Of a stretch of 39,932 nucleotides of DNA, positions 1 through 8,244 are shown piece by piece. This stretch comes from Parachlamydiales bacterium (GTDB taxonomy: Bacteria; Chlamydiota; Chlamydiia; Chlamydiales; Parachlamydiaceae): positions 1 to 39,932 of the forward strand of contig JAGVJP010000131.1 of assembly GCA_020051075.1 (NCBI GenBank). Reading direction: 5' to 3'. The position numbers were made by a program, and so were the translations under genes. How positions within the stretch are numbered: position 1 is the first letter of the stretch; the number at the start of each line of letters is the position of its first letter. The notes beneath the pieces are model-generated. The model ran no database searches. It had not been told where the DNA came from and saw only the letters and a program-made list of their open reading frames with translations.

Positions 1-96
1 ATGCCTAAGGGGAAATGGGTAAAAGCAGCTTAAACGGTAGGCAAAGCGGTACATGCTGGATGGATTTTTTTTTAATCCCTATTATGCAACAACGCC

Positions 97-174
97 CTTT
101 CGCACTCCAAACGCTTCGCGCTGAAAAAATGGGTAATGGTAAGGCCTGACGGCCTGAGGACAGTTCACACCTAT
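97..174. repeat. Repeat family A segment (CTTTCGCACTCCAAACGCTTCGCG...), inverted copy of 39812-39881
   Basis: 97-174 is the reverse complement of 39812-39881 apart from an extra GGCCTGAC. The core 24-mer also occurs at ~8414 and ~14095. Confidence 0.85.
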
Positions 175-422
175 TTATGAGCTATGAAAGAGCGACACAT
201 CATTATGGATAAGCAGGATACAAGTTCTCGCCAAAAATTAACCACACTCGCCCAGAGGCCGTCAGGACTGGAACTACATTCCATCGTGACCTGTAAGTGA
301 ATAACAGTCTGTTATTGGCAATAGCTTTTGACCTCCCCCTCTTTTTATTTTTCTTAATCTTGCCTAAAATCAGCAAAAATGGCTAAATATTTAATCCTCC
401 AGCTCTGTCAAGGAAGTATTTA

Positions 423-1178
423 ATGAAAGATTCAGATAAATTTCATCTGATGATCGTGGGCGATGTGCACGGACACTATGAAGATTACCTCGAAACGATA
501 CGGCTGGCGAACTACTCATTACAATTAGGGGATTTGGGGTTCGATTACACTCCACTGATACGGAGCGGGGAATGGGATCCGGAGAAACACAAATTCCTCC
601 CCGGCAACCACGATAACTATACCGTTAAAGAAGTTCATGGCGTCGATCCTCGGTCAGCCCAAATTCTAGACCCTTATAGCAAATATGTTGTCGTTAATGA
701 AAAAGTCTATCTCTACACCCATCTGCCAAAAAATTTCGTCGGAAACTATGGCATTTGGAGAGTGCCGACAACACATCCAGAGGCCAAGCAAGATTTTCTG
801 TTCTTTGTCAGAGGTGCTTGGAGCATCGACTTCGCCAATCGCACGTTGGGTGTTGACCTATGGGAAAACGAAGAACTCACAGAGGATGAGTTGAAACGTG
901 CTGTGAAGATGTATGAAGAGGTTAAACCGTCGATCGTCATCACTCATACGTGTCCCCATTCTGTTAAAGAGCATCTCCATTTTTATGGCCCTCCCGTGAA
1001 GACGAGGACTAGCCTGTATCTGCAGCAGATGCTCGACATCCATCAACCGAAGTTGTGGGTGTTTGGACATCATCACCAAGAGTTTGACAAGGTGATTGGC
1101 GAGTGCCGCTTCGTCTGCCTTGAGGAGCTGGCATTCCTCTGCTTGGACGAAAACCTCGACCCAATCCCTTTTCAGTAA
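423..1178 (+). CDS. Calcineurin-like metallophosphoesterase
   Basis: Metallophosphoesterase motifs in the expected order: GDVHG, LGDLG, GNHD, ITHTCP, FGHHH. Confidence 0.85.
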   Translation: MKDSDKFHLMIVGDVHGHYEDYLETIRLANYSLQLGDLGFDYTPLIRSGEWDPEKHKFLPGNHDNYTVKEVHGVDPRSAQILDPYSKYVVVNEKVYLYTHLPKNFVGNYGIWRVPTTHPEAKQDFLFFVRGAWSIDFANRTLGVDLWENEELTEDELKRAVKMYEEVKPSIVITHTCPHSVKEHLHFYGPPVKTRTSLYLQQMLDIHQPKLWVFGHHHQEFDKVIGECRFVCLEELAFLCLDENLDPIPFQ

Positions 1179-1233
1179 ATGAAGAAGCCCAGTTATTTAA
1201 ACATCAAAACTACATAACCAAATATGATATCAT

Positions 1234-1670
1234 ATGAACACGATTTTGAAAGAAGAAGTTAAGCGAGTCTTTTGCAACTGCGAGGGGGACAATGACGTTG
1301 AAGACCTCATCGAGCGCCTCCGTGGAGCACCCAAAGAATCCCTTCATCAGCTTCTGATTAAAATGATTATGTTTAAATCCCTCCCCTTGGTACAGCTCGT
1401 GGTCGAATCTGGCGCTGAAATCGAAGAGCCCATTGGAGAAGGAATCACCCCATTGCTTTATGCCTGCCAAGAGGGGCAGCTTGAGATCGTCGACTATCTT
1501 GTAAAATTGAATTCCTCCTCCAACAAGGATTAGATATCAACGCAAGAGATCACAGCGGCAACACTCCTTTGGATCTTGCAATAGGCTTTGAAGTCCCTTC
1601 TCAATTCATTGAATTTTTTCAAAGTCATGGAGGGATTGCTATGACAGAAAATTCTTCATTGACATATTAG
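1234..1670 (+). pseudogene. Ankyrin-repeat protein disrupted by frameshift/internal deletion
   Basis: ORF 1234-1533 has an Ank motif (GITPLLYACQEGQLEIVDYLV). A second Ank repeat (EFLLQQGLDINARDHSGNTPLDLAI) continues in a different frame from ~1509 to a TAG at 1668-1670. Confidence 0.75.
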
Positions 1671-1688
1671 TGCAATATGCACTATGCT
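1659..1688 (+). promoter_or_regulatory. Sigma70/66-type promoter P1 (TTGACA-N18-TATGCT) with palindromic operator TAGTGCA-ATA-TGCACTA (1668-1684)
   Basis: Perfect -35 at 1659-1664 and -10-like hexamer at 1683-1688. The same architecture and palindrome recur at 3403-3432. Confidence 0.8.
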
Positions 1689-1696
1689 TATCTTTT

Positions 1697-1789
1697 GCTG
1701 GGCCGATGCAGGTGGTTTATCGGGTACGTTAAATGCTGCGGAAACGTGAGCGAACGTTAACCATTGGCGTATACATGCCCAGCTTTTTT
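1697..1789 (+). ncRNA. Y-RNA-like ncRNA 1 (putative Ro60/Rsr-binding RNA)
   Basis: The 5' GCUGGGCCGA pairs with the 3' UGCCCAGC leaving a bulged C, followed by U6. Upper stem GGUGGUU/AACCAUU, UUAUCGGGU motif, inner GCG-GAAA-CGU hairpin. Starts 8 nt after the -10 and is homologous to 3707-3805. Confidence 0.75.
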
Positions 1790-1790
1790 C

Positions 1791-1919
1791 TTGCATCAAT
1801 CACCACAGAGCCTGTGAGATCACAGAGAAGTTATGAGAAAGTTGAGAAATCATCAAACTCGTTTCTCCCTATCTCACACCTCCTCAGTGACCTCACTGGC
1901 TCTGTGGTGATAGATGCAA
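1791..1919. repeat. Palindromic miniature element (ACCACAGAG family) between ncRNA 1 and rtcB
   Basis: Terminal arms TTGCATCAATCACCACAGAGCC / GGCTCTGTGGTGATAGATGCAA with further imperfect pairing inward. A related half-element is at 37941-37970. Confidence 0.75.
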
Positions 1920-1950
1920 CAACGCCAAAGAATACCAAAAAAGGTGCCAC

Positions 1951-3366
1951 ATGAAACCTATCGAATTTCAACAGATGCTTGAAGAAGTCAGGCTCACACA
2001 CAAAGAACGGGATGAAGCCTGGAAAACTTTTAAACAAGTGAGTCCTGAAGCTGCCGTCGATTTCGTTCAGAAAATACACGAAATGAGGATTGAACTGCAA
2101 GGCAGTGTGAAACTTCGAGACACCGCAGTCCCTTTTCATATCTGGGGCTTGGAACATATCGACAGCACAGCTTTAGAACAGATGGAAGGAGCTGCTCGTC
2201 TGCCCATCGCTCTGGCCGGTTCTTTAATGCCAGATGCTCACAAAGGCTATGGATTGCCTATCGGCGGGGTCTTGGCGACTGAAAACGCCGTAGTCCCTTA
2301 TGCCGTTGGCGTCGACATCGCCTGCCGCATGATGATGACAGTCTATCCCACCTCACCAGATGCGCTGAAGAAGCCAAACTCACCTGAATTTCAACACCTG
2401 CAGAAAGCTTTAATTGATCATACAGTATTTGGAGCGGGTGCAGATGGCGTGCACGATGGAAAAATCGAACACCCGATCTTGGACCCATCTCACTGGCAAG
2501 GCACCAGGCTCATCCGCGATTTGCGCCTCACCGCTATCCGTCAAATTGGCACAAGCGGAACGGGCAACCACTTTGTCGAATGGGGTGAATTCGAAGTGCT
2601 CGATGCTGCCAACACTCTGAAACTAAAACCTGGAAGCTATTTAGCTTTGCTATCCCACAGCGGTTCCCGCGGCGTCGGCTATAAAATCGCGGAACATTAC
2701 ACTAAAATCGCCATGGAGCTGATGCCAGACCTCGATGAATCGGTGAAGCATTTAGCATGGCTCCCTCTCAATAGAGAGGAGGGACAAGAATACTGGAATG
2801 CGATGCAATTAGCAGGAGAGTTTGCTTCTGCAAACCATCACGTCATCCATGCCAGAATCGCTAAAGCAGCAGGACTCGAGAGCATCGCTTCCATTGAAAA
2901 CCATCATAACTTTGCTTGGGTGGAAAAAATTATTGTGGATGGAATCGAAAGAGAGGCGATTGTGCACCGCAAAGGGGCAACACCTGCAGGAAAAGGGGTT
3001 CTAGGAGTGATTCCAGGGACGATGGCAGACGTCGGTTTCGTTGTGGTAGGAAAGGGGAATCTTGAATCGTTGAACTCCGCATCTCATGGAAGCGGACGTC
3101 AAATGAGCCGGACAAACGCTCTCAAGACCATTACTCATCAACAGCATGCAGATTATTTAACTGAACGGGGCGTCACCTTGATTGGCGGAGGCCTGGACGA
3201 AGCTCCTCATGCCTATAAATCGATTCAAAAGGTGATTGAAGCCCAAAGCGATCTGGTTGACATCATCGGCACCTTCCAACCCCGTATCGTCAGGATGGCG
3301 GAAGACAAGCCTTTGCATCATATTAAACCAGCACCAGAAGGTGTTGTCGATGCAAAAGGGGATTAA
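1951..3366 (+). CDS. rtcB: RtcB family RNA ligase (3'-phosphate/2',3'-cyclic phosphate to 5'-OH)
   Basis: Signature motifs MPDAHKGYGLPIGG, VGVDIAC, GTSGTGNHFVE, HSGSRGVG, HHNFAW, HRKGAT, SHGSGRQMSR, DEAPHAYK. Confidence 0.95.
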   Translation: MKPIEFQQMLEEVRLTHKERDEAWKTFKQVSPEAAVDFVQKIHEMRIELQGSVKLRDTAVPFHIWGLEHIDSTALEQMEGAARLPIALAGSLMPDAHKGYGLPIGGVLATENAVVPYAVGVDIACRMMMTVYPTSPDALKKPNSPEFQHLQKALIDHTVFGAGADGVHDGKIEHPILDPSHWQGTRLIRDLRLTAIRQIGTSGTGNHFVEWGEFEVLDAANTLKLKPGSYLALLSHSGSRGVGYKIAEHYTKIAMELMPDLDESVKHLAWLPLNREEGQEYWNAMQLAGEFASANHHVIHARIAKAAGLESIASIENHHNFAWVEKIIVDGIEREAIVHRKGATPAGKGVLGVIPGTMADVGFVVVGKGNLESLNSASHGSGRQMSRTNALKTITHQQHADYLTERGVTLIGGGLDEAPHAYKSIQKVIEAQSDLVDIIGTFQPRIVRMAEDKPLHHIKPAPEGVVDAKGD

Positions 3367-3402
3367 ATGACTGCGAAAAGTTATTTTTTATTAAATTCCC
3401 TG

Positions 3403-3432
3403 TTGACAAATTAGTGCATTATGCACTATATT
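3403..3432 (+). promoter_or_regulatory. Sigma70/66-type promoter P2 (TTGACA-N18-TATATT) with palindromic operator TAGTGCA-TTA-TGCACTA (3412-3428)
   Basis: Same -35, same 18-bp spacer and same palindrome in the same register as 1659-1688. Confidence 0.8.
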
Positions 3433-3447
3433 TTATTTTTCCGGACT

Positions 3448-3611
3448 ATACCGGCATCTAGTTGAAATTGCCCATCTGGACTGCGCCAAAGCCCCGGGGT
3501 TGAATGATCGTAAATCACCCCATATTGACTTAATATTGGGTGATTTACGATCATTCAACCGCGGGAGCTTTCGCGCAGTCCAGATGGGCAATTTCAACTA
3601 GATGCCGGTAT
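3448..3611. repeat. 164-bp near-perfect palindrome (MITE/palindromic-element-like) in the leader of the Y RNA-rsr transcript
   Basis: 3448-3486 pairs perfectly with 3573-3611 (39 bp) and 3498-3520 with 3538-3560 (23 bp). About 76 bp of stem in total, with 3 mismatches, one bulge, a 5-nt loop and TA at the ends. Confidence 0.9.
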
Positions 3612-3620
3612 TAACGTGTT

Positions 3621-3684
3621 TCATCTGGGCCGGAGTATGTTGGTTACCGCTAAATCTCCAACTTACACAATCATGCCTAGATGG
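3621..3684 (+). ncRNA. Y-RNA-like ncRNA 2 (minimal, ~64 nt)
   Basis: CAUCUGGGCCG pairs with UGCCUAGAUG (bulged C). Upper stem GUAUGUUGG/CCAACUUAC; the loop starts UUACC. Same GGGCCG...CAUGCC frame as ncRNAs 1 and 3. Confidence 0.65.
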
Positions 3685-3706
3685 CTTTATACGTTTAGTA
3701 GATTTT

Positions 3707-3805
3707 GTTGGGCCGAATAAGGTGGATTATCGGGTGCACTGAAGTCGCGCGTCTAGTTACGCGAGGACATGTGTTTGCCATCTTTAAACCATGCCCAACT
3801 TTTTT
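3707..3805 (+). ncRNA. Y-RNA-like ncRNA 3
   Basis: GUUGGGCCGAA pairs with UGCCCAAC, followed by U6. Upper stem AAGGUGG/CCAUCUU, UUAUCGGGU motif, inner stems GCAC/GUGU, GUC/GAC and CGCGU/ACGCG. Compensatory changes relative to ncRNA 1. Lies directly upstream of rsr. Confidence 0.78.
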
Positions 3806-3845
3806 ATTCGCAATGGGTATTCCGTTGCCAACAATGAGACAAAAC

Positions 3846-5486
3846 ATGAGCTATAAAAACCTTATCCAGAATGCAGTGCCAACATTGAAAGGGAAAACCC
3901 CTGAATCTGTGCCTCTTCCAGGACAGGTTCAAAACGAAGCGGGAGGTTACTATTTCGCCATCGATCAATGGGCACAGCTTGATCGATTCCTGATTTTGGG
4001 AACAGATTCAGGAACCTACTACGTCAATCCTGCTCAACTGACGAAAGCGAACGCACAGATCATCCAGACGCTGCTTAAAACGGACGGGGTCAAAGTCGTT
4101 GCACGAATTGTCGAGGTCAGCGTAGACAACCTCGCTCCTAAAAACGATTCTGCCCTCTTCGCCCTTGCTCTTGCAGCCTCATGCGACGATCAACTCACCC
4201 GTCAAGCTGCTCTCGCAAACCTTCACAGAGTCGCACGCACAGGCAGCCATCTTCTGCAGTTTGCCGGTTATATCAACCATTTACGCGGCTGGGGCCGTGC
4301 CTTGCGCAATGCTGTTGCAGATTGGTTCACCGATATGCCTTTAGATCAGCTGACTTTGCAAGCGATCAAATATGAGCAGAGAGAAGGATGGTCGCTCCGC
4401 GACCTCTTGAGACTATCACACCCTAAATGTACTGACGATCCTGACCGAGCAGCTTTGTTCAACTGGATTGTAAAACCTAAAAATCCAGAAGCCATTGCAG
4501 CAGCGCGGAAGCAACGTCTGATCGAAGGCAAATATCAAGCACAAGAGACAACATCTGAACAAGAAATAAGCCAAATTGTCCGCACATACTCATTGCCACG
4601 AGAAGCTTTGCCTACAGAAGCTCTGAACAGTCAAGAGGTTTGGGATGCGCTGTTAGTCGATATGCCCATGACTGCGATGATTCGAAATTTAGGTAAAATG
4701 AGCGAAGTCGGCTTGCTTCAACCTTTTCATCCTGCTTCTCAGTATGTTGTCCAACGCCTGGGCGATCAGGAGCAATTAGTCAAAGCACGCATCAGCCCCT
4801 TTCAACTCTTGTTGGCCTTGCGTACCTATGCTAGAGGTAAGGGAGTCTTAGGATCGCTGACCTGGACACCTGTCCCATCCATCGTCACCGCTTTGGATGA
4901 GGCTTTCGAACTCTCCTTTTCCACAGTCGTGCCAACAAACAAACGCATATTGGTCGGGATCGACGTTTCAGGTTCGATGGGGTGTTCATGCACCGGCTCC
5001 CCAGTGCTATCTTCTGTAGAGGCTGCTGCTGCTGTCGCTTCATTCCTAGTGCGGACAGAAAAGGAAGTGCATACGATGGCTTTTGATACGAAAGAGCGGG
5101 AATTCCCCATCACTCCAAAACAACGACTCGACGATATCATCTTAAGCGTCTCTCAATGGGGAGGGGGAACAGACCTCTCGATTCCGGTCACCTATGCCTT
5201 GAAGAGACAACTTAATGTCGATGCCATCATCATCCTCACCGATAACGTAGGCTGGGCGGGCGATCGGCATAACGTCCAAGCCTTGAACGAATATCGCTCT
5301 AAAATTAACCCTCAGGCGAAATTGGTCGTTATGGCAACTTCTGCAAATGGAGGCATCATCTGTGATCCCAAAGACCCTCTATCATTAGGTGTCGTTGGGT
5401 TCGATGCATCCGCTCCCCAGGTCGCAATGGAATTCATCGGCGGTAATCAGATGAAGCCTTCTCGACGAGGTCTTAATGACGCCTGA
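3846..5486 (+). CDS. rsr: Ro60-related protein Rsr (TROVE + vWA domain)
   Basis: QVQNEAGGYYF, QLDRFLILGTDSGTYY, GWGRALR, KYEQREGWSLRDLLRLSHPK, MPMTAMIRNLGKM, vWA MIDAS DVSGSM, GGTD and TDN motifs. The start is most likely ATG 3846 (or 3834), not TTG 3705. Confidence 0.95.
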   Translation: MSYKNLIQNAVPTLKGKTPESVPLPGQVQNEAGGYYFAIDQWAQLDRFLILGTDSGTYYVNPAQLTKANAQIIQTLLKTDGVKVVARIVEVSVDNLAPKNDSALFALALAASCDDQLTRQAALANLHRVARTGSHLLQFAGYINHLRGWGRALRNAVADWFTDMPLDQLTLQAIKYEQREGWSLRDLLRLSHPKCTDDPDRAALFNWIVKPKNPEAIAAARKQRLIEGKYQAQETTSEQEISQIVRTYSLPREALPTEALNSQEVWDALLVDMPMTAMIRNLGKMSEVGLLQPFHPASQYVVQRLGDQEQLVKARISPFQLLLALRTYARGKGVLGSLTWTPVPSIVTALDEAFELSFSTVVPTNKRILVGIDVSGSMGCSCTGSPVLSSVEAAAAVASFLVRTEKEVHTMAFDTKEREFPITPKQRLDDIILSVSQWGGGTDLSIPVTYALKRQLNVDAIIILTDNVGWAGDRHNVQALNEYRSKINPQAKLVVMATSANGGIICDPKDPLSLGVVGFDASAPQVAMEFIGGNQMKPSRRGLNDA

Positions 5487-5754
5487 TGCATTAAGAGCGA
5501 TTGGAGAAGCCTTATTTGGCAAATGGGGATGGCAAACAAAATTAGCCAAAGCTTTACGCGTCGATGGAAGCACAGTGAGACGGTGGATTTCTGGAACGAC
5601 GACAATCCCAGGGCCAGCAGAAGTTGCCCTGGAATTGTTGTTGAGCTCTCATCAACGCAACATCAAAGACACTGCCAGTAGACCCAACACATCCGGCTCA
5701 TCCGGCACACCCAACACACAGAAACGACATCGTCCTGCCCATATCAAAAAATAA
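5476..5754 (+). CDS. Small Cro/XRE-like helix-turn-helix protein, candidate regulator of the rtcB/rsr promoters
   Basis: WQTKLAKALRVDGSTVRRWISG is a typical HTH. The start overlaps the rsr end by 11 nt, consistent with translational coupling. Confidence 0.75.
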   Translation: MTPDALRAIGEALFGKWGWQTKLAKALRVDGSTVRRWISGTTTIPGPAEVALELLLSSHQRNIKDTASRPNTSGSSGTPNTQKRHRPAHIKK

Positions 5755-5777
5755 TACTACTGTCCAAACCCATTCCT

Positions 5778-5980
5778 GCAACAAGATGAACAGGATAGGC
5801 AACATGGCAACTTCGCAGCATGGAAAAACAGGATAGGCAAGATCGCTTCGCGGCAAGATAGGCAGGATAGAGAATGCTTTCCATTGAATAAAATGCTTCT
5901 CCATCCTTCTCATCTTTCCCATCCTGTCAATTTCTCAGGATAGAAACGATGGAAAAGATAGGTATACTTGCATGCTTGCC
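5778..5980. repeat. Cluster of repeat family B (CAGGATAGGCAAGATCGCTTCGCGGCAAGATAGGCAGGAT)
   Basis: Same motif as 9228-9262 (inverted), 20149-20488 and 12837-12910. Confidence 0.75.
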
Positions 5981-6010
5981 TTCATGTGAAGTTTTCAATA
6001 TTGTTATCTT

Positions 6011-6082
6011 ATTATGCTCGAAATTGACAAATGTCGATTTTGAGCATAATGAATTGACATAAAAATTCTGCTCATTTATAAT
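6011..6082 (+). promoter_or_regulatory. Consensus promoter TTGACA-N17-TATAAT (6054-6082) with a 40-bp imperfect palindrome upstream (6011-6050); probably a leaderless mRNA
   Basis: Perfect -35, -10 and 17-bp spacer. The ATG at 6090 is 7 nt after the -10. Palindrome ATTATGCTCGAAATTGACA-AA-TGTCGATTTTGAGCATAAT. Confidence 0.8.
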
Positions 6083-6089
6083 AAGAGTC

Positions 6090-7514
6090 ATGAAACCATT
6101 TGTCGGAAGAGATAACGAATTACAAAAGCTCGAGGACCTACTAAAAACAGGTCGAGCACGCCTCGCCATCATAAAGGGGCGTCGTCGCATCGGAAAAAGT
6201 CGGCTTGCCGAAGAATTCGGAAAAGATAAAATATTCCTCCCTTTCAGTGGACTGGCTCCTGCTAAAGGGGTGACAGCACAGGATCAACGTGATGCCTTTG
6301 CCCGCCAATTAACAACTTTATTTCATCTTCCTCCTTTCACTTTTACCGACTGGAGTGATGGTTTTGCACACCTCTCGCAGCATCTTACAGAAATGCCCAC
6401 CGTCATTCTCTTCGATGAGATTTCGTGGATGAGTTCAAAAGATCCAACATTTATCTCTAAACTAAAAGTTTGGTGGGATCTTGTCTTACAGAATCATCCC
6501 TCCGTCATCCTTATTTTATGCGGGTCCATTTCGACTTGGATTGATAAAAACATCATTAACAGCACTGCTTTTTTTGGACGAATTTCTCTCTATCTGGAAT
6601 TAGTAGAGTTATCCATCCCACAATGCAGGGAATTATTAAACCTTCAAGGATTCAAAGGTTCCGACCTTGATTTTTTTAAGATTCTTAGTGTCACTGGTGG
6701 GATTCCTTGGTATCTAGAACAGATTCAAAGCAATTTAAGTGCTGATGAAAATATCAAGCGCCTTTGTTTTGAGAAAAACGGCCTTCTCGTACATGAATTC
6801 AACAGGATTTTCAATGATCTTTTTCACTCAAGAGGAGAGGTTTATAAGAAGATTATTAAATTATTAAGTCAAGGGATGAAAGATCGGGCAACCCTCCAAA
6901 AAGCAATGGATTACTCACCAAGTGGAACATTAAGCCAACACCTTAAGGCTCTTGAAATCTGTGGGTTTGTCAGCAAGCATCCTGATTGGTCCTTAAAAAC
7001 GGGGAAACCAGGAAAACAGGCTCTTTATCGACTTTCTGACAACTACCTTCGCTTTTACATCCATTACATAGAACCCAACCTCCCAAAAATTGAACAAGGA
7101 TCATTCCTAGATGTCCCGCTCTCTAGTTTGCCTGGTTGGGAACCGCTGCTTGGCTTCCAATTAGAAAACCTTTTGTTGAAAAACAGATCTCTCATTTATC
7201 GTGCACTTGGAATTCATGCTCAAGATATCGTCATTGACAATCCCTATTTTCAAAAAGCGACAGACCGTAAGAAGGGATGTCAAATTGACTATCTTATTCA
7301 GATGCATTCACACACTCTTTTTGTCTGTGAAGTTAAAATGCGCCGTCGTGAATTAGGTCTTGAGGTTATCGAGACAATGAAAACAAAAATCGCCTCTCTT
7401 GCTTTGCCCAAAGGATTCGGCATCTCGCCTGTCCTTCTCCATTTAGGACCTATCTCCGATGCCCTCTTAAGCAACCCATATTTCTATCGCATCATCGATA
7501 TTGCCGATTTATAA
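6090..7514 (+). CDS. AAA+ ATPase ('archaeal ATPase' type) with wHTH and C-terminal PD-(D/E)XK-like (DUF234-like) domain
   Basis: FVGRDNEL N-terminus, Walker A GRRRIGKS, Walker B ILFDE, LCGS, TGGIPWYL, YRLSDNYLRFY, QIDYLI...FVCEVK. Confidence 0.85.
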   Translation: MKPFVGRDNELQKLEDLLKTGRARLAIIKGRRRIGKSRLAEEFGKDKIFLPFSGLAPAKGVTAQDQRDAFARQLTTLFHLPPFTFTDWSDGFAHLSQHLTEMPTVILFDEISWMSSKDPTFISKLKVWWDLVLQNHPSVILILCGSISTWIDKNIINSTAFFGRISLYLELVELSIPQCRELLNLQGFKGSDLDFFKILSVTGGIPWYLEQIQSNLSADENIKRLCFEKNGLLVHEFNRIFNDLFHSRGEVYKKIIKLLSQGMKDRATLQKAMDYSPSGTLSQHLKALEICGFVSKHPDWSLKTGKPGKQALYRLSDNYLRFYIHYIEPNLPKIEQGSFLDVPLSSLPGWEPLLGFQLENLLLKNRSLIYRALGIHAQDIVIDNPYFQKATDRKKGCQIDYLIQMHSHTLFVCEVKMRRRELGLEVIETMKTKIASLALPKGFGISPVLLHLGPISDALLSNPYFYRIIDIADL

Positions 7515-7563
7515 TCCTACCAACATCTAGTCGAAATGAAGGTCATGACACATCACTTCATTT

Positions 7564-8244
7564 TTATTTTTTACGGGCAATGATTTCGAAAATATGGGAA
7601 TGGGTCTGACGTCCAGTACCGCTTTGACCATCTTCTTCAAATTCTTTAAAAGATTCCACATCAAAATCTTGAAAAAGACTCAGCACTTCTTCCCGTTTCA
7701 GAAAAGTCATTTCTTTCACCTCTTGCTCGGGAAAACCAAGATAGTTTAGTCCAAAAAAATGCCCTGCAAATCTCCCTCCAGGAATAAGTTTTTGTTTGAC
7801 ATGACTCCAAACTCTTTTAAATTCTGATTGATTGCAAAAAGGTAAAGAGTAAGAAGCATAGATGAAATCAACATCCGGTAGTGCATCCCAAACTGATTCT
7901 TCCTCAAATTTATTCACGACCGAAGTTAACTTCTCGGGTTCTTTGATGTCATTTCGTTTATTTATTATTTGAATGGCTTGGTGTTCACTATCTATAGCCC
8001 ATACTTCCCAGCCCTTATTAAGCAGGAAAACTGCTTCATTGCCTACACCGCACCCTAAGTCAATGGCTTTACCTTGTTTTTTGAAAAGATTAAGTGCTTC
8101 TACAATAATCTCTCGGGGAGGTTGACCCATTTTGTTTTTATAATATCTGTCCCACTTTCCTTGTTTAAGGATTCCCAATCCAAGGAAAAGGATAACTAGT
8201 AAAGTAAAAATTATAGATATTTTCTTCCACTTCGTCATGTTCAT
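7564..8244 (-). CDS. Class I SAM-dependent methyltransferase (TehB-like) with N-terminal hydrophobic segment
   Basis: Motif I AIDLGCGVG, VWAID, LIPGGRFAG. Confidence 0.8.
   Translation of the reverse strand: MNMTKWKKISIIFTLLVILFLGLGILKQGKWDRYYKNKMGQPPREIIVEALNLFKKQGKAIDLGCGVGNEAVFLLNKGWEVWAIDSEHQAIQIINKRNDIKEPEKLTSVVNKFEEESVWDALPDVDFIYASYSLPFCNQSEFKRVWSHVKQKLIPGGRFAGHFFGLNYLGFPEQEVKEMTFLKREEVLSLFQDFDVESFKEFEEDGQSGTGRQTHSHIFEIIARKK

Follow-up and report, generated by a model that had tools for sequence, protein, structure and literature searches.

A predicted RtcB, Ro60 and Y RNA module in a chlamydia, with a small Aca-like helix-turn-helix protein as its probable regulator

The locus

We describe a predicted RNA repair locus of Parachlamydiales bacterium (GCA_020051075.1), where rtcB, the Ro60 orthologue rsr, three Y-type RNAs and the gene for a small helix-turn-helix (HTH) protein lie together on contig JAGVJP010000131.1. 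The window, meaning the whole stretch of DNA analysed, is 39,932 nt long and its coordinates are given on the + strand. The host genome is 2.94 Mb, 99.9% complete and has 5.7% contamination. The same contig encodes rpsL-rpsG-fusA, scpAB and obg, the unit is therefore chromosomal, and Parachlamydiaceae records are the nearest named relatives for the RtcB, Rsr and HTH proteins alike. The order of the parts is P1, Y RNA 1, rtcB, P2, Y RNA 2, Y RNA 3, rsr and the HTH gene, all on the + strand (Table 1). An earlier reading made from the letters of the DNA, here called the sequence-only reading, had proposed these promoters, palindromes, RNAs and genes, and their positions and orientation were borne out.

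Table 1. Features of the locus, in window coordinates.
Feature	Position	Strand	Description
P1, predicted sigma70-type promoter	1659..1688	+	-35 TTGACA 1659-1664, 18-nt spacer, -10 TATGCT 1683-1688; 10/12 consensus
Operator 1 (putative)	1668..1684		perfect palindrome TAGTGCA-N3-TGCACTA, fills the P1 spacer and overlaps the -10
Y-type RNA 1 (87 nt)	1697..1783	+	5' motif GGGCCGA, a terminal and an upper stem, loop beginning with UUAUC, then T6; without tRNA-like module
Hairpin repeat 1 (135 nt)	1788..1922		dispersed genome repeat ahead of rtcB; outside the regulon
rtcB, RNA ligase (471 aa)	1951..3366	+	PF01139, E 3e-80; full length
P2, predicted sigma70-type promoter	3403..3432	+	-35 TTGACA 3403-3408, 18-nt spacer, -10 TATATT 3427-3432; 11/12 consensus
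Operator 2 (putative)	3412..3428		perfect palindrome TAGTGCA-N3-TGCACTA in the P2 spacer
Hairpin repeat 2 (164 nt)	3448..3611		miniature inverted-repeat element between P2 and Y RNA 2
Y-type RNA 2 (64 nt)	3621..3684	+	short lead RNA; motif-plus-stem search
Y-type RNA 3 (93 nt)	3707..3799	+	motif-plus-stem search; then T6; without tRNA-like module
rsr, Ro60 orthologue (546 aa)	3846..5486	+	TROVE and vWA_Ro60; MIDAS DxSxS motif intact; full length
Small HTH gene (92 aa)	5476..5754	+	overlaps the rsr stop by 11 nt; conserved core of ~62 aa, variable tail; proposed autorepressor

Both units are preceded by predicted promoters of the sigma70 type with the same palindrome, as the sequence-only reading had it. 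Promoter-like sites by themselves do not exceed chance, with 9 in number where 6.3 are expected; the palindrome has 2 matches in the window at two or fewer mismatches where 0.06 are expected, and the whole genome holds only two exact copies, those of P1 and P2, and three sites at two or fewer mismatches. The geometry of P1 recurs in relatives. The claimed absence of rtcR, rtcA and a -24/-12 promoter also stood: RtcR (PF06956) was not found in the host genome by a search that recovered it in an E. coli control, RtcA (PF01137) was not found there either, and the interval 679-3942 has no sigma54 -24/-12 match on the + strand and one on the - strand, with 3.35 expected. The host genome does have a sigma54 gene.

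The HTH protein and the palindrome

A scan of GTDB genomes with an alignment of the HTH protein gave 52 loci, titled Alpha- and Gammaproteobacteria, Chlamydiota, Bdellovibrionota, Verrucomicrobiota and others, mostly Alphaproteobacteria. A TROVE gene lies directly upstream of the HTH gene in 45 of them (38 by tblastn, one of these a C-terminal fragment, and 7 by Pfam), spanning two distant TROVE clades. The palindrome was found at two or fewer mismatches in 41/51 relative loci (one duplicate dropped), mostly between the -35 and the -10. A TTG stands 8 or 9 nt upstream at 52/60 sites, which gives a promoter spacer of 17 or 18 nt, and the core of a Y RNA follows 13-17 nt downstream at 43/60. The HTH protein, the palindrome and the RNAs thus clearly co-occur in other genomes.

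As a control starting from TROVE we took 351 genomes of the order of genome G401, 22 of which bear TROVE. Fourteen of these 22 have neither the HTH nor the palindrome, four have a close HTH together with the palindrome (three of these loci already belong to the first set, and one has a variant with 3 mismatches), and four have the recognition helix DRSSVSRW with TGTTGCA-N3-TGCAACA instead. At TROVE loci without the HTH the palindrome was found in 0/15. The helix DDRTVRRW pairs with TAGG(G/A)CA-N3-TGACCTA in two of three loci, and the third ends at a contig edge. In the DRSSVSRW class the palindrome covers the TTGCAT -35 itself, which fits repression. Two loci, L013 and L019, have two operators directly ahead of the HTH gene though TROVE was not found in their genomes, so that the site appears to track the HTH and not Ro60.

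Domain searches with the HTH protein gave only weak Cro/YdaS/HTH_3 matches below the cut-off, and no sensor or effector domain was found in it. Its core is 75-89% identical across phyla, and the wider family has 126 representatives at E 1e-10; two PHROGs without an assigned function there, 3626 and 12690, match 46/46 members. The predicted model has four helices over residues 3-67 (pLDDT ~90) and a loose tail. Its best fold neighbour is Aca10 (Z 8.7, rmsd 1.4, 54 residues aligned), followed by SO3848, AcrIF25, HigA2, NE0471, Aca2 and MqsA, all tied within one Z unit, and then by Aca1 and Aca7; identity in the structural alignments with the Aca neighbours is 17-24%. Foldseek gave no match at E 0.001, the best being Aca2 at E 0.1, and a sequence search of the PDB, the solved Aca proteins included, gave none below E 0.5. 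The predicted fold places the protein among the Cro/XRE autorepressors, and no closer.

Several points weigh against taking this protein as the reader of the palindrome. The few loci with a variant operator are also the ones from which it was defined, and they come from related genomes, which makes two events and not six. Of 52 loci with the helix DGSTVRRW, eight have no operator at one or fewer mismatches within 3.2 kb; three of the eight are cut by contig ends, one has a site at 2 mismatches, and four are unexplained. The palindrome alone is unspecific, with TROVE downstream in 8/63 metagenome matches and in 0/4 viral matches, ~20 matches being one repeat-like family. Relatives have a weak -10, its sixth base being T in 16/52, and the control loci span ~3.2 kb, where a more distant site could be missed. 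The tie among the fold matches also counts here, and their Z range is common for small helical proteins. Even so, the co-occurrence of the HTH protein with the palindrome and the co-variation of helix and operator make it very probable that this protein is the autorepressor cognate to Ro60/Y RNA operons, with the build of the Aca repressors. This supports the proposal of an rtcB-rsr module under one small HTH, independent of RtcR.

Distribution and gene neighbourhoods

Seven HTH loci fall outside the 45 with TROVE directly upstream. At one of them a contig edge leaves just a vWA tail, one is an unscanned second copy, one is cut off, one has the HTH between rtcB and RlaP, one is a weak match, and two have the HTH ahead of an SPFH-DUF4178 operon. 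The last two (L013:7918-11233 and L019:2680-6066) show the HTH with its two operators heading an operon of SPFH/Band-7 and DUF4178 genes, and Y RNAs were not found at these loci. A single genome carries two copies of the TROVE-HTH cassette, L053 and L054, ~52 kb apart. Some carriers are alphaproteobacteria in culture, among them the non-pathogenic Brevundimonas of L036.

The sequence-only reading had included rtcB in the regulon, and here it held in part. rtcB is present in 11/52 loci only, in two subfamilies ~30% identical (tblastn); in four loci it is divergent, and there the shared back-to-back operator has a TTG on both sides. Behind the HTH gene some loci have RlaP or a kinase-phosphatase-ligase protein. 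By comparison of the loci, the fixed core of the predicted module is operator, Y RNA array, TROVE and HTH, and rtcB is optional. A metallophosphoesterase gene upstream and an ATPase gene downstream were also considered as members and rejected, with zero tblastn matches across the relative loci.

The module does occur in a chlamydia, as claimed, but is not specific to chlamydiae. Rsr was found in 3/401 genomes of the phylum and the promoter-operator pattern in 2/401; the third Rsr genome, G060, has neither the HTH nor the palindrome nearby. HTH matches were found in 3/401 in the class of G401. Viral loci also carry the module, with TROVE-HTH in 6/8 and the operator in four. Among viral or prophage-like cassettes, L129-L132 and L106 have the same promoter palindrome with small uncharacterised open reading frames, two of them with a distant HTH match, and these are candidate acr-aca-like operons.

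In three loci the cassette of operator, Y RNA, TROVE and HTH lies within a long tRNA array of 13-23 genes on the same strand (L024:4635-10605, L033:4981-10849 and L034:463-2927). This setting recalls cryptic stress tRNA operons. Several ARAGORN tRNA calls in arrays of the relatives overlap Y RNA units and were left out of the tRNA counts.

Y-type RNAs

The proposed RNAs have the 5' Ro60-binding motif, as given in the available part of PMC4201824, within a terminal stem, and they lie beside a Ro60 gene on the same strand. A motif-plus-stem search of the window gave exactly three matches, which are the three RNAs of Table 1; Rfam calls none of them at its gathering score. RNA 2 weakly matches ceN72, a model of nematode stem-bulge RNA, at E 0.038 and under the gathering score, and nematode stem-bulge RNAs are described in the available part of PMC4726728 as Y RNA homologues with the UUAUC loop motif in common. 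When the window and 53 loci were searched for the 5' motif with a pairing 3' end, 84 units were found, every one on the strand of the HTH gene. T- and D-arm motifs are both present, in the order of YrlA, in 22/84 units, and two units of L027 match RF02553 below the gathering score, which links this kind of stem to the bacterial Y RNAs already known. A T arm was found in 0/11 units of the window, L005, L017, L022 and L028, and YrlA (RF02553) has no match in window 1-8000. YrlA-like matches elsewhere in the genome fall on tandem tRNA genes (4/5 loci scanned, covering 5 hits, two in one cluster) and were rejected as YrlA RNAs.

Folding of single RNAs is modestly better than that of shuffles (z -1.1 to -2.9). 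An alignment of 27 short RNAs with MAFFT and RNAalifold misaligned the 3' ends and gave no structure, and it was replaced by an anchored test in which 102 distinct units, unselected for pairing, had their 3' partners swapped 500 times. The outer stem forms 4.47 of 6 pairs as compared to 2.75 after swapping (maximum 3.04), and the upper stem 6.95 as compared to 4.76 (maximum 5.03), with kinship among the units uncontrolled. Both strands of the terminal helix are conserved and co-varying in these 102 units.

In the window and the same four relatives, every unit that directly precedes a protein gene (7/7) has 6-8 T behind it. These T tracts behind the last Y unit suggest attenuated read-through into the protein genes.

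A second type of Y-like array, with a 5' motif like GTGGTG...GGTT(A/T)CTTCG, a 3' TTCCC and in many cases T/D arms, was observed upstream of TROVE in L046, L047, L049-L051, L053, L054, L024, L033, L145 and L155-L157. This array type accompanies a distant clade of shorter TROVE proteins (~440 aa), and the HTH is the same.

RtcB and Rsr

The top named relatives of this rtcB subfamily are from environmental chlamydiae. The Pyrococcus enzyme aligns with it at the motifs PDAH, DIAC, GNH, HSG, HN and SHG, where RtcB ligases have their metal ligands and the guanylylated His. The genome has a second, more canonical rtcB without an operator (G000:C17:38141-39439). Rsr matches Deinococcus Rsr at E 3e-102 and animal RO60 at 7e-99, and is below the cut-off of the NCBIfam Rsr equivalog (445 of 900 bits). 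A tree of 39 rows, from which loci lacking a long match were omitted, puts the chlamydial proteins together with alphaproteobacterial ones in a group of 11 rows that has good support, a placement consistent with horizontal transfer. A complex prediction for Rsr and the HTH protein scored 0.00, which weighs neither way. Three metatranscriptome runs held only short contigs of relatives or repeats, and a contig of 193 nt that spans the rsr-HTH junction has 22 differences; both are uninformative.

Discussion

The arrangement of the locus indicates that the HTH protein probably represses its own operon from a site overlapping the promoter, with the Y RNAs as first products and RtcB, Ro60 and the repressor after them. 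The protein would block RNA polymerase by binding, as a dimer, to TAGTGCA-N3-TGCACTA between -35 and -10 in both P1 and P2. Once repression is lifted the first products would be Y RNAs, which begin at about the predicted transcription start and need no translation, and read-through beyond the U-tracts would produce RtcB, Ro60 and further repressor in a negative feedback loop. The Y RNAs would be bound by Ro60 at their bulged terminal stem, and Ro60 together with RtcB may handle broken or misfolded structured RNA. The locus may be a stress module, as the sequence-only reading had proposed.

If the HTH protein does repress, the lack of a sensor domain makes loss of the repressor the likeliest release. 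Perhaps it is lost when translation stalls, as proposed for TrcR in Anabaena; this is the route we tentatively prefer. A steady-state feedback with a burst on entering a new cell is possible but doubtful, action of a protein partner or protease appears unlikely, and titration by RNA is more unlikely still.

The best surviving alternative, which we nevertheless regard as unlikely, is a pure feedback of the Aca type without a stress signal, where mobile cargo is strongly expressed on cell entry and then held at a level by the HTH protein. The role of the cargo would be counter-defence or homeostatic, for example against host RNases, and not an inducible stress response. The layout is like that of acr-aca operons, with promoter palindrome, cargo and a small HTH last (PMC9410881, available part), the spread is patchy at 3/401 in the phylum and 3/401 in the class of G401, the chlamydial Rsr is nested among proteobacterial ones, and there are 6 viral TROVE-HTH contigs as well as cassettes in viruses where the palindrome is the same, the cargo is another and the HTH matches are distant. 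Against it, the module lies on a contig with rpsL-rpsG-fusA and scpAB and has brought a native-looking chlamydial rtcB under a second operator, and in four loci the operator is shared back-to-back with an rtcB belonging to another subfamily; this looks like a domesticated host regulon.

It is also conceivable, if improbable, that the HTH protein binds RNA as well as DNA, so that free or Ro60-released Y RNA pulls it off the operator and the module senses the occupancy of Ro60. RNA hairpins beginning immediately downstream of the start site are ligands of Aca1 and Aca2, and a titration model was put forward; for Aca10, the nearest fold, electrophoretic mobility shift assays gave no RNA binding (PMC13551039, available part). 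In the present locus a Y RNA starts at the equivalent place, the HTH is nearly always beside Ro60, and the identity of its core across phyla exceeds what a lone operator may require. Taken further, an Aca-like HTH captured from mobile elements would be the regulator so far missing for a large group of Ro60/Y RNA operons, titrated by Y RNAs, nascent or released from Ro60, while Ro60 on the nascent Y stem before the U-tract would set read-through into rtcB and rsr. If true, the Y RNAs would be the sensor of an RNA-damage circuit without a CARF or WYL domain, and we hold this extension to be just as improbable. RNA binding by the HTH protein is opposed by L013 and L019, which keep the HTH and operators where Y RNA and TROVE were not found.

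That the HTH is a MerR-like activator acting from the spacer, or a passenger while a host-encoded regulator binds the palindrome, is highly improbable: MerR sites also lie in the promoter spacer, and some metagenome matches have the palindrome ahead of unrelated genes, but MerR promoters have a long spacer as compared to 17-18 nt here, the protein lacks an effector domain, and the site overlaps the -10 or -35, tracks the HTH across five phyla and changes with the recognition helix.

Autorepression by the HTH protein can be compared with three known systems. In Salmonella an operon, rsr-yrlBA-rtcBA, is under RtcR and sigma54 (PMC7790460, available part). Like it, the present locus joins a Ro60 orthologue, several Y RNAs and RtcB; unlike it, RtcR and RtcA were not found, the predicted promoters are of the sigma70 type with a palindromic operator, the small HTH comes last, and the local RNAs lack the tRNA-like module of YrlA. 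In Anabaena PCC 7120, TrcR represses rtcB and a tRNA array, and release by loss of the repressor on translation stall was proposed (PMC10272220, PMC8421152, in their available parts). Also there the system is independent of RtcR, and rtcB is under a small autoregulated repressor with a site overlapping the promoter, which is what we predict here, and the link between operator and tRNA array is seen in L024, L033 and L034. TrcR differs in being a ribbon-helix-helix repressor that acts on direct repeats and has the wider regulon, whereas the HTH model is all-helical, the site is a 17-bp inverted repeat and the genome has two sites. The main text of the two TrcR papers does not mention TROVE.

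With Aca1, Aca2 and Aca10 the HTH protein shares the small HTH gene in last place, the palindrome over the promoter, a similar predicted fold and an RNA element right behind the start (PMC9410881, PMC13551039, PMC8434428, in their available parts). The cargo differs, being Ro60 and Y RNAs and not acr genes, with TROVE as the upstream gene in 45/52 loci. The finding points to Aca-like repressors having been recruited to RNA quality control.

The bacterial Y RNAs YrlA, YrlB, Yrn1 and Yrn2 are described with a GNCGAAN0-1G 5' motif and a YUAY loop start, and the RNAs found here have a similar motif, the same loop start and same-strand arrays upstream of rsr. The co-varying terminal helix is reported in the available part of that paper for Deinococcus and animal RNAs and not for YrlA. 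Each species studied there had a tRNA-like RNA, and further variants were expected (PMC4201824); the putative chlamydial Y RNAs without the tRNA-like module are one such variant. The supplements of the same paper, file 6 excepted, gave no match for six organism terms.

A locus with Ro60, Y RNAs and RtcB is already known (PMC7790460), as is repression of rtcB independent of RtcR in cyanobacteria. The word HTH does not occur in PMC7790460, nor do TROVE and RtcB in PMC13551039 and PMC8434428. The proposed regulatory arrangement, an HTH and its operator on Ro60/Y RNA operons, would be new as a variant and is well supported by comparison. Burroughs and Aravind 2016 reportedly survey Ro/RtcB gene neighbourhoods and may mention such an HTH; their paper was not covered by the full-text literature in which we found no description of the HTH, its operator or Ro60 in chlamydiae.

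The signal that induces Ro60/Y RNA genes in bacteria without RtcR would tell what these ribonucleoproteins do. The induction of Ro60/Y RNA becomes testable through the named protein, the 17-bp operator, the start sites predicted near 1695 and 3439 and the specificity variants that occur naturally. Many Y RNAs are also added beyond the Rfam calls, including the set without a tRNA-like module and the second type tied to a distant TROVE clade.

Inserted repeats and neighbouring sequences

The two long hairpins, which the sequence-only reading had counted as parts of the regulon, are inserted miniature repeats dispersed in the host genome, and were rejected as regulatory RNAs of the module. The 164-nt hairpin has 9 genome copies with both ends, 8 of them measuring 162-166 nt, and the 135-nt hairpin has 3 such copies and partial BLAST matches on more than 20 contigs. 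In L017, the closest relative, both hairpins are missing from the corresponding places. Rfam miRNA matches to the hairpins are below the gathering scores, and no long element sharing the ends of either family was found within 3 kb. A third short repeat family, with direct and inverted copies, lies 3' of the HTH gene at 5789-5943, and many metatranscriptome contigs fit it in part.

Upstream of the module, at 1234-1533, is a short ankyrin open reading frame whose repeat sequence seems to run on in another frame to ~1600, possibly a broken gene. Downstream, at 6002-7514, lies an archaeal-type ATPase with an HTH region, and ahead of it a 28-nt inverted repeat stands beside a perfect sigma70 promoter (6054-6082), so that this gene is possibly autoregulated.

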